Shown: piece after piece, positions 6,001 to 12,000 of the stretch
Numbering within the stretch: the first letter of the stretch is position 1
Layout of the letters: every line of letters begins with the position of its first letter
From: a virus
Taxonomy: Duplodnaviria > Heunggongvirae > Uroviricota > Caudoviricetes
DNA: 17,049 nt
Reading direction: 5' to 3' (one strand)
Virus record (IMG/VR): IMGVR_UViG_2585427751_000001
Program-made: the position numbers

Positions 6001-9000
6001 TAAACACAAAAGACAAACTAACAAAAGACAATATAAAACCTTTTTCGTCCGAGAATTCTGGCGAATCCTCTGACCAGCCAGAAAACGACTTTCCTTTGGA
6101 GAAACTGGATGCTGCAATTCAGAGCGGCAGCAAGTGGGGGACAGCAGAAGACCTGACCGCCGCAGAGTGGATGTTTGACATGGTGAAGACCATCGCGCCC
6201 TCAGCCAGAAAACCGAATTTTGCAGGGTGGGCTAACGATATCCGCCTGATGCGTGAACGTGACGGACGTAACCACCGCGACATGTGCGTGCTGTTCCGCT
6301 GGGCATGCCAGGACAACTTCTGGTCCGGTAACGTGCTGAGCCCGGCTAAACTTCGCGACAAGTGGACCCAGCTCGAAATCAATCGTAACAAACAACAGGC
6401 TGGCGTGACAGCCGGAAAACCAAAACTCGACCTGACAAACACTGACTGGATTTACGGGGTGGATTTATGAAAAACATCGCCGCACAGATGGTTAACTTTG
6501 ACCGTGAGCAGATGCGCCGGATCGCCAACAACATGCCGGAACAGTACGACGAAAAGCCGCAGGTACAGCAGGTAGCGCAGATCATCAATGGTGTGTTCAG
6601 CCAGTTACTGGCAACTTTCCCGGCGAGCCTGGCTAACCGGGACCAGAACGAACTGAACGAAATCCGCCGCCAGTGGGTTCTGGCTTTCCGGGAAAACGGG
6701 ATCACCACAATGGAACAGGTTAACGCAGGAATGCGCGTAGCCCGTCGGCAGAATCGACCATTCCTGCCATCACCCGGGCAGTTTGTAGCCTGGTGCCGGG
6801 AAGAAGCATCCGTTATTGCCGGACTACCAAACACCAGCGAGCTGGTTGATATGGTTTACGAGTATTGCCGGAAGCGTGGCCTGTATCCAGATGCAGAGTC
6901 TTATCCATGGAAATCAAACGCGCACTACTGGTTGGTTACCAACCTGTACCAGAATATGCGGGCCAATGCGTTGACTGACGCGGAATTACGGCGCAAGGCT
7001 GCCGATGAACTGTCCTGTATGAACGCGCGAATTAACCGTGGTGAGGCTATACCTGAACCAGTAAAACAACTTCCTGTCATGGGCGGTAGACCTCTAAATC
7101 GTGCACAGGCTTTGGCGAAGATCGCAGAAATCAAAGCTAAGTTCGGACTGAAAGGAGCAAGTGTATGACGGGCAAAGAGGCAATTATTTATTACCTGGGG
7201 ACGCATAAGAGCTTCTGTGCGCAGGACGTTACCGCGGTAACAGGCGCAACAGTAACCAGCATAAATCAGGCTGCGGCTAAAATGGCGCGGGCAGGAATCC
7301 TGGTCATTGATGGTAAGGTCTGGCGAACGGTGTATTACCGGTTCGCTACCAGAGAAGAACGGGAAGGAAAGGTGAGCACGAATCTGATTTTTAAGGAGTG
7401 TCGCCAGAGTGCCGCGATGAAGCGGGTGTTGGCGGTATATGGGAGGACTACAGCATAAGCATAACTTATGGATTATATGGAAAACTGGTAATTATGCTCT
7501 TTTCTTATGAAAATAAAGAGAAGTTTTCGCTGGCGTTTTATTTGTTCTGTTTTTTCTTGCGGGTTATTCTGATTTGTTTTGATTTGATTTTTTCTGACAA
7601 AAGTAGGGAAAAAATATGTCGCAAGTACTTTCTGTCTTTACCTCCTAAATTACATTCTCTATCAAATGTTGCCATAGTTATGACCCCAGTTTTATATAGT
7701 GTTTCAGCAATTTTTCTGTAGTTTTTTTCTCGCAAAATTGAAGAGTTTTTCTTTGCTGTATTTTCAAGGCTATCTCCTTGTGGTTTAAGACTATTTGGGC
7801 CAAAAAACGTTGTGGATACTGCTGCACTTGTTGTCCGTTTTTTTTGGCCCATTTGGATAGTACTTGGGAGAGGCATGATTTTAATACGCATATAAATAAC
7901 TCCTCTATCAATTGGATTTTGGGAAAATGTTAACATTAATCATGATTAAGGAGTAATTTTAAATCTTCCAATAAAATTTGTTTAAACTCTTGTGTTCTAT
8001 GATCGATATACAACGCAAGTTTGCTTGCATTATCTTCCAGGTCACGTATCTCTCTGTCACCTCGAATAAACCCAACTAAATTTAAACGTTTAGATAGTTC
8101 AGAACTTCCTTCTATGGCATCTTGGAGTATTTGAATGATTTCTGAATTCATTGAGCGCCCGTTTCGTTTGGCTCGTTCAGCTATAGCTTCACGCATCCCA
8201 TCGGGGAAACGGAGGTTAAACTTATCGTAGTCTTTTACTTGTTTGTCAGCCATTGGAACCCCCAAAAAAATGAATGGTGCCATATTGCCACATCAATTCA
8301 ATGGTGGCATTATGGCCTCATGGTGTCATTGTGGCCTCATGAGGTTATGTCAATGGAAAAGAAAGAGGTAAAAATTACCCTTCGCTATCCGCAAAAAGTG
8401 AAGGATGAATTCAAGCGAATTGCTCAGGAGGAAGGGATGTCTGAGAACGCAGCTATTGTTCAGGCGCTTGTATGGGCATTGAAATTTAGAGCACGGATAC
8501 ATGCTCGCTAGAAACAGCGAAGCCCCACTGGCGGCAACCTTAGGGGCTTCTATCGAAAATAACCGCGAAGGAAATATCGACATGAGTATTGTAGCAACAT
8601 CAGATCTGAACTTCCAAGGTGAAGCACTAGTGCCAGTGGCAAATATTGCCGGAATATGGCTAACTTCATCCAACCTAGCAAGAGCACTGAAGTATTCGAA
8701 TAGTCGCGCAGTCACGATGATTTACAACAAATATGCTGACGAATTTTCCAGTAGTATGACTAGAGTGCTTGAAGTCAGTACCTCAGAGAATGATGTCGAG
8801 GTACTTGATCTGAGTACCTCGAAAAGTACTCGAAACTTGAAGAAGAAAGTACGTGTTTTCTCTCTCCGCGGAGCCCATTTGATCGCCATGTTCGCCCGCA
8901 CTCCTGTAGCCAAAGAGTTCCGCCGTTGGGTTCTGGATATTCTCGATCGAGAAGTTCAACAATCCCCAATCATAAAACAATTCACTGATAACGAACTTTG

Positions 9001-12000
9001 CACACTTGCTTGGTTATGGCGAGCAGGGGATGTGATGTTAACCGCCTGCCAGAATGTTACTCCACTTCTTCAGGTTGCGGAGCACCGCGAAGCTGGTCGC
9101 TTTACTTCTATCGGGCAAGAATATCCCCAGATACTACATAAGGCGCGCGAAATCCTTGCCAGAGAAACGGCACATGTAAAACTCCAGCCTTGGCAGGATA
9201 ATAAGTGGAGCAGGGTGTTGCCATATTTCCGTCAGAATCTGTTGCAATAAAGTCACTAGTTAGAAATACTGCCAGCATTCTACGATAACGGAAGTGCTGG
9301 CATTTTTTGGGGTAATGTGCGAGTCCATTTCATAAAATACGGGGGCTGTAAACTGGACGAAATAATCTAAAAGATACCATTACCAGTAGCATTTAAATCG
9401 CTATGTGCCGATACGGATAAAATTATATTGATTGTTCACATACCTTATTGGATATTACTGAGGGGTATTTATATAAGGTGTAACGATAATGTGGAACTTT
9501 GACAGTGCCGACTTAAGTGCAATAGCAGCAGGCATTTCTGCGTTTGGCACATTAGCCGCAGCGGGGTCGGCGCTTGCAAGTTGGTACACGTCAAAAAAAG
9601 CGCTGCAGCTACAAAATAGAGTTTACCTTTATGAGTCTTTAAAGGCTTGCGCTGAGAGAGCCAATACATCAGCTAAAGATAAGCGCGGATCTGAATGGAG
9701 CGTTAATGATGCAGCGGATATCATCAGGTGCCTGGTACGGGCGATGGAGATCATCAAGCAGGATAGCCAGCAGAAAGAAGGTAATCAGGCATTAATGTTG
9801 AAACAGTACTTTGTTAATCTGCTAATAATGGAACTGTACGAGGAAGTTCATAACGGTGATGCGGCTGTTTCTGTTTTTAAAAGTACGGAACCTACACAAG
9901 TACTTGATAACTTATGGAACAAATGGCAGGAGGCTATAGCTTTTTTTGATATTTGGAATTACCCAGTTGTGACTGAGGAAGACTTGGCAGACTAATTTTC
10001 AGCACATTTGATTTCCCATAATCAACCAGCCATAATCATGCCATTGGAGCTTGAACAACTCCGGTGACTTCTGCGCTAAACGGGGACGTTTATGCGCACA
10101 TACAATCTAAACTCTCTTCTCCCTTCACAGATGCAGAAATGCATCTGCGATTCTCTGCATCCAACGTTTGACCTCTGCGGAGGTGAAGCGTGAACCTCCC
10201 ACAAGACGGCATCAAATTACATCGCGGCAACTTCACCGCTATCGGCCAGCAGATCCAGCCTTATCTGGAGGACGGAAAATGCTTTCGCATGGTGCTTAAA
10301 CCGTGGCGTGAGAAACGCAGTCTTTCCCAGAATGCACTCAGCCACATGTGGTACAGCGAAATCAGTGAATACCTCATCAGCAGGGGGAAATCGTTCGCTA
10401 CCGCAGCATGGGTAAAAGATGCTCTCAAACACACATATCTCGGTTATGAAACCAAAGACCTGGTTGATGTCGTAACCGGTGATATCACCACTATCCAGTC
10501 GTTACGCCATACCTCCGATCTTGATACCGGAGAGATGTATGTCTTCCTGTGTAAGGTTGAAGCCTGGGCGATGAATATTGGTTGCCACCTGACTATTCCA
10601 CAGAGCTGCGAGTTTCAGCTGCTGCGCGACAAGCAGGAGGCGTAATGGCTACACCGCTTATTCGTGTCATGAACGGACACATCTACAGAGTACCAAATCG
10701 TCGTAAGCGTAAACCTGAGCTGAAGCCATCCGAAATACCAACACTGCTCGGATATACCGCCAGCCTGGTTGATAAAAAATGGTTGCGACTGGCAGCAAGG
10801 AGGAGTCATGGCTGATTTGAGAAAAGCAGCGCGTGGTCGGGAATGCCAGGTAAGAATCCCTGGCGTATGTAATGGCAACCCTGAAACGTCTGTACTGGCA
10901 CATATCCGGCTGACTGGATTGTGCGGCACCGGTACGAAACCGCCAGACCTGATTGCCACCATTGCATGTTCTGCCTGCCACGACGAAATCGACCGCCGCA
11001 CGTATTTTGTTGACGCTGGATATGCAAAAGAATGCGCGCTGGAAGGTATGGCGAGAACGCAGGTTATCTGGCTGAAAGAGGGGGTAATTAAGGCGTGAAT
11101 ACTTACCACATCACACTACCCTGGCCGCCGAGCAATAACCGCTACTACCGCCATAATCGAGGGCGCACGCACATCAGCGCAGAAGGGCAGGCATACCGCG
11201 ATAACGTCGCCCGAATCATTAAAGGCTCAATGCTGGATATCGGTCTGGCTATGCCTGTGAAAATCCGCATTGAGTGCCACATGCCGGATCGCCGTCGCCG
11301 TGACCTGGATAATCTGCAAAAAGCCGCTTTTGACGCACTCACTAAAGCAGGTTTCTGGCTGGATGATGAGCTGGTCGTTGATTACCGCGTTGTGAAGATG
11401 CCTGTTACCAAAGGTGGGAAGCTGGAACTGACCATCACTGAACTGGGAGATGAATGATGTTTGAGTCTTATATGGCAGAACGTCTTCGCCGCCGCTGGGT
11501 GCGCCTGCGCTTATATCGTTTCCCCGGTTCTGTTTTGACCGATTACCGAATACTGAAGAGTTACGCCAAAACCCTGACAGGAGCAGGAGTATGAAGTCAG
11601 AGATAACAATCAACTAATACTGTTTTGTTGATTTTTGCTTGTAATTGGCGTTCTGGTCTGATTTTTGTGGAGTAAGTTGATGCGTGATATTCAGATGGTT
11701 CTTGAGCGTTGGGGAGCGTGGGCTGCAAGTGGTAACACCGGGGTGGACTATTCTCCGATCGCTGCCGGATTCAAAGGACTTTTACCATCTGCCACTAAAC
11801 CACGTCCGGCCTGCTGCGATGATGACGGACTTATCATTGAAAACTGTCTTGCTCGTCTGAAGCAGAAAAAACCTGAGGAGTATTCGCTTCTCATTGCTCA
11901 TTATTTGTTGCGAATATCAAAAAGACAGATAGCCAGGACGAGAAAGAAAAGCGAAAAAGCAATACGAATTGAGATGCAGATAGCCGAAGGGTTTATTGAC

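Follow-up and report, generated by a model that had tools for sequence, protein, structure and literature searches.

Does the interval between ren and the nin region of a lambda-type phage hold a second immunity system of the kind that P22 carries as immI? The question was raised by a Caudoviricetes sequence of 17,049 nucleotides (nt), IMG/VR record IMGVR_UViG_2585427751_000001 (the whole stretch is called the window below), in which a first-pass annotation, made from the sequence alone, had read positions 7459-9250 as a divergent unit of a Mnt-like ribbon-helix-helix (RHH) repressor on the minus strand and an Arc-like RHH repressor and a BRO-N-type antirepressor on the plus strand. All three genes, with their strands and with significant family matches, were recovered in our analysis, and the likeness to the P22 immI architecture turned out to be closer than had been claimed, with a putative sar-like RNA in the arc-ant spacer and a terminator after ant. 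We conclude that the window probably carries a complete P22 immI-type cassette (mnt-like, arc-like, sar-like RNA, ant and terminator) as mobile cargo between ren and ninB of a lambda-like E. coli phage. The module type is well understood; its position is a less usual one. The gene content, homologies, RNA element, promoter-like and terminator-like signals, repeats and the conservation of the layout across diverged cassettes were established here by computation.

Gene content (Pfam and annotation comparison) identifies the window as early-region DNA from a temperate phage of the lambda type, with bet/gam, a HipA-like pair, cI, cro/cII-region genes, O, P, ren, cargo, ninB, ninE, rusA, Q and lysis genes. 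The predicted placement between ren and the nin region was correct, as the cassette falls between the last base of ren (7458) and the first of ninB (10190). The cI product is a repressor with helix-turn-helix (HTH) and Peptidase_S24 domains. Positions 7300-10300 match Escherichia phage PhiR5_1 (PV340545) at 99.9% identity; the deposited record of this phage is a complete genome, names E. coli C as the host and includes a near-identical cassette. The match to PhiR5_1 covers only 65% of the whole window, so the window represents a mosaic relative. A search of a literature collection for phage PhiR5_1 found no paper.

Genes and antisense RNA of the cassette

Homology searches identified the products of the divergent unit as two Arc/Mnt-family RHH proteins and a Bro-N protein with a P22 antirepressor C-terminal domain. 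The Mnt-like protein matched the Pfam Arc family with an E-value of 6.3e-20, and its closest solved structure in the PDB sequence search was P22 Mnt (1mnt, 1.7e-8); the 47% identity to P22 Mnt is confined to the RHH domain (residues 6-54), where the beta-strand Asn and Arg of Mnt are conserved. An AlphaFold2 (AF2) prediction placed a C-terminal helix at residues 75-102 with a predicted local distance difference test score (pLDDT) of about 80-90, and this part differs from P22 Mnt. The Arc-like protein, encoded by the first gene of the ant operon, matched Pfam Arc at 9.2e-5 (22.6 bits, with a gathering cut-off of 20.4) and hit Arc entries in the PDB at 1e-4 to 1e-7, with Arc variants at 8.5e-5 to 5e-4; it is 36% identical to P22 Arc across 45 residues. 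With 52 aa it is close to the size typical of this Arc/MetJ-family repressor, about 53 aa. A GAGG Shine-Dalgarno (SD) sequence precedes its ATG at 8353 by 8 nt. All five proteins were also scanned with PADLOC and NCBIfam, which gave nothing informative beyond generic RHH matches.

The third protein, Ant, has Bro-N (PF02498, 6.3e-9) as its N-terminal domain, followed by P22_AR_C (PF10548, 2.5e-16, profile positions 5-73 of 73). It was assigned to PHROG anti-repressor families (best 2.9e-48). The P22AR N-terminal domain, PF10547, which P22 Ant and O157 Ant carry (1e-40 to 1e-44), was not matched in Ant, and Bro-N stands in its place. In a BLASTP comparison the C-terminal part aligned with residues 177-273 of P22 Ant (E 9e-6). 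The PDB sequence search found no relative of Ant.

These domain assignments also bear on a rival explanation, according to which the cassette is regulated as we propose below, while the Bro-N/P22AR_C protein is another effector, such as a DNA-binding regulator, a host-toxic Kil-like protein or an anti-defence protein. N-terminal domains of the Bro-N/KilA-N type are widespread and mostly uncharacterised, the lack of a solved relative and the N-terminal domain that differs from that of P22 Ant fit such a role, and the GenBank annotation names the ant product 'Rha protein'. Moreover, many related cassettes carry a second Ant-like gene downstream, for a different Bro-N or ORF6N protein (the window has none), so the payload is variable. 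However, the P22AR_C domain is common to Ant and to the one experimentally defined Ant, the gene occupies the exact Ant slot behind arc and sar, and the best PHROG families with an assigned function are all 'anti-repressor'. On balance, we consider a different effector unlikely.

With ant read as a putative antirepressor gene, its start had to be chosen. Both the Prokaryotic Genome Annotation Pipeline (PGAP) and the PhiR5_1 record begin ant at 8501, with an 11-nt overlap with arc. Most likely, however, the true start is the ATG at 8582, which gives 222 amino acids (aa); this start is favoured because the Ant homologues align from that Met, the upstream extensions of the open reading frame (ORF) differ among relatives and are missing in locus L029, an AAGGA SD sequence lies 9 nt before the ATG, and position 8582 corresponds to the one covered by sar in P22. 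Public annotations of the cassette thus appear to mis-start ant, and in the PGAP and PhiR5_1 annotations the sar-like RNA and the Arc-family genes lack specific names. Downstream of ant, the fold of 9251-9315 (-18.6 kcal/mol, z -2.3) consists of a stem followed by a U-run, and the P22 record has a terminator annotated at the equivalent position relative to ant.

The spacer between arc and ant, 70 base pairs (bp) here and 68 bp in P22, was found to contain a fourth immI component that was absent from the first-pass annotation, a putative sar-like antisense RNA on the minus strand. The Rfam sar model (RF00262) matched over its full length (1-68) from 8580 to 8516 with 34 bits and an E-value of 2.4e-4; P22 sar scores 97.8 bits with the same model. 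The 5' hairpin of the predicted RNA bears an anti-SD sequence, and the 3' terminator hairpin is formed by GAAGCCCC...GGGGCTTC. The DNA alignment to P22 shows conservation of the -10 of the promoter, the ATG of ant and the GAAGCCC/GGGGCTTC stem of the terminator. The Psar-like promoter has the geometry of the annotated P22 Psar and would start transcription at about 8581, a single base away from the ant ATG; its -35 and -10 elements are kept in cassettes whose Ant proteins are just 60-70% identical. At the equivalent spot, the Rfam sar model scored 48 bits in SPN3UB (above the gathering score), 37.6 bits in Klebsiella ST512-KPC3phi13.1 and 29.5 bits in an O157 cassette.

We built a covariance model from five of these elements and applied it to 79 IMG/VR loci, those with the closest homologues of Ant. 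The element was found in 24 of the 79 loci, and its end is always the last base ahead of the ant start codon. The terminator stem keeps its pairing through compensatory changes, with one pair seen as CG, AU, GC and UA. Hairpin I was out of register in the MAFFT and cmsearch alignments, and each sequence was folded separately instead of counting pairs. In all 14 distinct versions the same two hairpins formed, with the anti-SD in the 5' one. The mean stability of the antisense strand exceeded that of the sense strand by 8.6 kcal/mol, a bias that would be expected if the G-U pairs benefit a leftward RNA. These independent observations make the putative sar-like RNA more than a marginal match. Sar-like RNAs occur well beyond the P22-like phages, but their scores fall under the Rfam gathering score and they are therefore left unannotated.

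Features of the immI-type cassette and its surroundings in the window (promoters, boxes and RNA element are predictions)
Feature	Position	Strand	Basis or remark
mnt-like repressor gene, 105 aa from ATG 8253	7936-8253	-	N-terminal RHH domain and helical C-terminal extension
Divergent control region	8254-8352		Promoter scans, repeats, box counts
Boxes ATGGTGNCAT, three	8274-8283, 8301-8310, 8320-8329		Pattern count in the window; control region only
Pant-like promoter, TTGCCA-17-CATTAT, extended -10 TG	8285-8313	+	Promoter scan, 9/12 consensus
Leftward promoter candidate, AGGCCA-17-CATAAT	8337-8309	-	Promoter scan
Leftward promoter candidate, ATGACA-17-CACCAT	8329-8301	-	Promoter scan
arc-like repressor gene, 52 aa	8353-8511	+	Pfam Arc, PDB matches, P22 Arc alignment
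Putative sar-like cis-antisense RNA	8516-8581	-	Spans ant ribosome-binding site and arc-ant spacer
Psar-like promoter, TTGGAA-18-TACAAT, TG 5' of -10	8588-8617	-	Promoter scan; inside first ant codons
ant, putative antirepressor, 222 aa	8582-9250	+	Bro-N N-terminal and P22AR C-terminal domain; ORF 8501-9250
Intrinsic terminator after ant, GCCAGCA...UGCUGGC stem, then AUUUUUU	9270-9308	+	Fold of 9251-9315
lambda P	6467-7168		Left flank; Pfam, PhiR5_1 annotation
ren	7165-7458		Left flank; Pfam, PhiR5_1 annotation
ORF117, small basic protein, 117 aa	7538-7891	-	Cargo gene 3' of mnt-like gene, outside the immI-like module
ORF168	9489-9995	+	phrog_1779; 3' of ant terminator, separate unit
ninB	10190-10645		Right flank; Pfam, PhiR5_1 annotation

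Control region and proposed regulation

The spacer between the mnt-like and arc-like genes, 99 bp here and 90 bp in P22, was scanned for promoters; as a control, the same scan recovered both the annotated Pant and the annotated Pmnt of P22. It returned a good Pant-like promoter and two weaker leftward candidates, the -10 elements of which overlap the Pant-like promoter. Transcription is predicted to begin at about 8320 on the plus strand and at about 8294-8302 on the minus strand. The sequence ATGGTGNCAT occurs three times in the 17-kb window, each time in the control region, where 0.2 occurrences were expected and three or more were seen in 0 of 200 shuffles. The boxes lie just 5' of the Pant-like -35, across the -10 and at about +1, and they make up 19-bp direct repeats and an 18-nt imperfect dyad. 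We suspect that they are Mnt-type operators, because GGTG-containing repeats are a feature of the P22 mnt operator and lie at the equivalent position in the cassettes of SPN3UB and the Klebsiella phage, and because the beta-strand Asn and Arg are conserved in the Mnt-like protein. The control region is also conserved, together with the coding part of the Mnt RHH domain, in the O157 cassettes, at about 85% DNA identity to the window.

Several observations weigh against the reading of this locus as a working immI-type antirepressor cassette. The likeness to P22 Ant is limited to the C-terminal third, at 22% identity, and CI of the window is just 21% identical to P22 C2. To our knowledge, no experiment has demonstrated antirepressor activity for Bro-N + P22AR_C proteins of this subfamily. 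The C-terminus of the Mnt-like protein gave no match (E <= 0.1) to the Pfam Repressor_Mnt tetramerisation domain PF11423, which P22 Mnt itself matches at 1.6e-20. The 34 bits of the sar match fall under the Rfam gathering score of 43, and the leftward promoter candidates are weak by consensus (8/12). Finally, the boxes do not simply track either RHH protein across cassettes: when cassettes with swapped proteins were compared, the Mnt RHH domains were nearly identical among cassettes with differing boxes, and the O157 and SPN3UB cassettes have Arc in common but not the boxes.

A working model of the regulation was drawn up by analogy with P22 (summarised in PMC2629481 and PMC7380047), and every binding and regulatory step in it, as well as the target of Ant, is modelled on that phage. 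In a lysogen, the Mnt-like repressor, expressed from a leftward promoter, would bind the GGTG boxes over the -10/+1 of the Pant-like promoter and keep arc-ant silent. Upon infection of a cell free of Mnt, Pant would fire in a brief burst and would then be shut off by the Arc-like protein. The sar-like RNA, of about 65 nt and transcribed leftward from the promoter in the first ant codons, may pair with the ant ribosome-binding site and limit Ant translation. Since arc-ant is co-oriented with the early-right operon, this block could extend to ant on transcripts that read through from PR. Ant would bind a CI-type repressor (HTH + S24) non-covalently and inactivate it, which would lead to RecA-independent derepression of the phage and perhaps of co-resident lambdoid prophages. 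Repressors of the HTH + Peptidase_S24 type belong to the class inactivated by P22 Ant, according to Susskind and Botstein (1975) as cited in PMC2629481, and the antirepressor role of Ant against CI is proposed on this analogy. The second layer of immunity control and the derepression of related prophages suggested by the first-pass annotation would likewise follow the P22 precedent.

If Ant is active, the phage could derepress itself or neighbouring lambdoid prophages, including Shiga toxin (Stx) phages in E. coli, without RecA-mediated repressor cleavage. Its immunity would then be bipartite, as in P22, and predictions of prophage induction and cross-talk would be affected.

Neighbouring cargo in the ren-ninB interval

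The extent of the module was revised. The interval 7459-9250 had been taken as one block; its left third, 7459-7935, lies outside the module and contains an unrelated cargo gene, ORF117. The lower GC content ascribed to the whole block relative to its flanks is graded rather than uniform, rising from ORF117 (34%) through the mnt-like gene (37%) and arc (44%) to ant (46%), with P/ren at 52-53% and ninB at 50% on the flanks. The lowest values of the interval (32-34%) lie at 7459-7935, outside the module.

ORF117 has a strong SD sequence (AGGAG) 8 nt before its ATG at 7891. Its homologues, of equal length and 51-62% identity, were found in Hafnia and Enterobacter prophages, where they stand alone and reverse-oriented in the replication-nin interval or by xis/int, with no mnt/arc/ant. 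By this comparison, ORF117 is an independent conserved gene that does not belong to the immI-like module. Against the nearest E. coli copy there were three differences, too few to judge whether the frame is coding, and the coding status was settled with the diverged homologues. The PhiR5_1 record splits the gene into two tiny spurious ORFs, whereas PGAP calls the 117-aa product. The protein has a disordered N-terminus and then three helices, and the motif FDREC...GKDR.YLRHIFSLLL is invariant. Pfam, PHROG, PADLOC and NCBIfam searches gave no match for ORF117; its AF2 model was of moderate quality (pLDDT 71), and Foldseek returned no PDB match under E = 2.6. In the phage collection, no homologue was found besides the one in PhiR5_1. 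ORF117 is a candidate for a gene expressed in the lysogen.

On the other side of the cassette, ORF168 encodes a protein with a hydrophobic N-terminal stretch and is preceded by an AT-rich region of its own; PhiR5_1 and PhiR26_1 are the only members of the phage collection in which it occurs. Because ORF117 and ORF168 are separate units, the variable insert extends over about 7459-10018 and consists of four units; shared lambda-like sequence resumes at about 10018. Related phages (loci L093 and L094) carry other cargo between ren and ninB. In PhiR26_1 this is the defence gene PD-lambda-1, and PhiR30_1 has acyltransferase/lipoprotein genes there; an esterase gene lies immediately 5' of the ninB homologue of phage 4A7. 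The ren-ninB interval is a cargo hotspot.

Two further cargo-like loci were observed elsewhere in the window. A DNA methylase gene (N6_N4_Mtase, 2.3e-44) is located at 12624-13673 on the plus strand, downstream of Q, as late-region cargo. A HipA-like kinase (PF20613/PF07804, weak) and a DUF3037 protein are encoded at 2156-3807 on the minus strand, between cI and the kil/gam region, a place occupied by rexAB in lambda; the PhiR5_1 record names this pair HipA toxin and HipD antitoxin, and it is possibly a lysogen-expressed toxin-antitoxin or defence pair.

Distribution and comparison with known systems

The mnt(-)/arc(+)/sar(-)/ant(+) layout was found in 20 diverged loci and in three genomic contexts. 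One is the interval from P/ren to ninB (L014-L021), another the tail-gene region (L-K in O157, L026, L029 and a Klebsiella phage; L003 is likewise a tail-gene site), and the third is the P22 position, flanked by gene 16 and tailspike (L073). Lambdoid prophages of Salmonella, too, carry mnt/arc/ant cassettes among their tail genes. Within the first group, Ant is 94-100% identical to that of the window in L014-L020, and L014 and L018 carry near-identical cassettes, with proteins 94-100% identical to the window. Such cassettes are mobile. The three contexts fit the published picture of the 'ant morons' of P22-like phages (epsilon34, L, ST64T and others), which are mobile, independently regulated and subject to high turnover (PMC2629481).

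The same data bear on whether the cassette could be a remnant without activity that persists as a passive passenger in a recombination hotspot. Ant morons decay in some P22-like phages (PMC2629481), and the exact cassette is rare, as at least 80% of it was found in 5 of 5426 complete E. coli genomes, although pieces of it are common. However, the cassette ORFs are all intact and have good SD sequences, none of the signals for promoters, antisense RNA and terminator is missing, the proteins of L014 and L018 are nearly unchanged, and compensatory changes preserve the pairing of the RNA stem across relatives. A decayed cassette is therefore very unlikely in our estimation.

Outside the window, P1-type C4/isrK control is the commoner one for the closest Ant homologues. 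In addition to the 24 of 79 loci with sar, 53 of the 79 (among L031-L090) have isrK and C4 RNAs, indicating that the same Ant payload has been exchanged between two unrelated control systems. Both isrK and C4 lie 5' of Ant homologues that are 60-70% identical to Ant in the replication-to-nin/Q region of L005 (2754-2951) and L008 (1828-2023). Immunity regions of this P1 type are located between the replication genes and nin/Q in IdasGreatGrand and phiSTEC1589-Stx1c, and in the latter directly 5' of ninB. PhiR26_1 has an Ant homologue in the ren-ninB interval. As a separate observation, phiSTEC1589-Stx1c (L008 2865-2955) contains an Rfam sRNA-Xcc1 match of 68.6 bits, above the gathering score, before a second Ant-like gene just 5' of ninB; it is a third kind of structured RNA ahead of an antirepressor-type gene.

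Taken together, these observations allow a tentative joint reading, which we regard as possible rather than likely. One Ant family (60-100% identical) would circulate among enterobacterial lambdoid phages under either P22-type Mnt/Arc/sar or P1-type isrK/C4 control, with both types reaching the ren-ninB hotspot. In the window, every N-antiterminated PR transcript heading for Q would cross arc-ant, the sar-like RNA would be the sole brake on Ant during induction, and Ant might act as a feed-forward amplifier of induction and as a broadcast inducer of co-resident lambdoid prophages.

The remaining rival would place ant under a different switch, as an SOS (LexA)-controlled antirepressor of the 186 Tum/Gifsy type or as a P1-type ant controlled by C4 RNA. 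Both types exist in enterobacterial prophages (PMC7380047), and in the ren-ninB interval isrK and C4 RNAs are found ahead of close Ant homologues. In the window, however, no LexA box (CTGT-N8-ACAG, at most one mismatch) was found between 6897 and 12633, the nearest matches being at 6881 and 12634, and control through SOS was therefore rejected. An Rfam search of 7300-10300 (E <= 10) gave no match to C4 (RF01695) or isrK, and P1-type C4-RNA control of ant was likewise ruled out, as the Mnt/Arc/sar set is present instead. Control of either kind is extremely improbable.

Among the known systems, the LexA-controlled antirepressors (186 Tum, Gifsy GfoA/GfhA and SPC32H Ant) inactivate prophage repressors non-covalently and mediate cross-talk between prophages (PMC7380047). 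Their end effect is presumably the same as that of the cassette described here, but they are small unrelated proteins under a LexA box; a further contrast is that CI of the window carries its own S24 autocleavage domain. The P1/P7/N15-type immI (C4 + isrK-like RNA) controls the same Ant family, at 60-70% identity, through a trans-acting processed RNA repressor and lacks Mnt, Arc and sar, whereas the window has the Mnt/Arc/sar set. The O157 cassette shares the Mnt RHH coding part, the control region and a sar-like RNA at the equivalent place, but it is located between tail genes L and K and contains a different Arc and a P22-type Ant (P22_AR_N + P22_AR_C).

P22 immI itself differs from the cassette of the window in several respects. 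It is located in the late operon, between gene 16/sieA and tailspike, whereas the cassette described here lies in the early-right operon between ren and ninB and does not match the P22 'ant moron' site (late operon, from head/ejection genes to tailspike). P22 Ant has 300 aa and P22_AR_N, as compared with 222 aa and Bro-N here; P22 Mnt has 83 aa and PF11423, and the Mnt-like protein has 105 aa and a different C-terminal helix in place of that domain. The operator sequences are unlike each other, and the likeness of the sar elements is distant, as their scores indicate. On the other hand, the two cassettes have the same gene order and strands, two Arc/Mnt-family RHH repressors, and a divergent control region with repeated boxes, in which overlapping promoters are predicted for the window, the leftward candidates being weak. 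In both, a cis-antisense RNA, predicted in the window, starts by the ant ATG and ends in the conserved GAAGCCC/GGGGCTTC hairpin, Ant has the P22AR_C domain and a terminator follows. In both phages arc-ant is co-oriented with an antiterminated operon, to which mnt is antisense.

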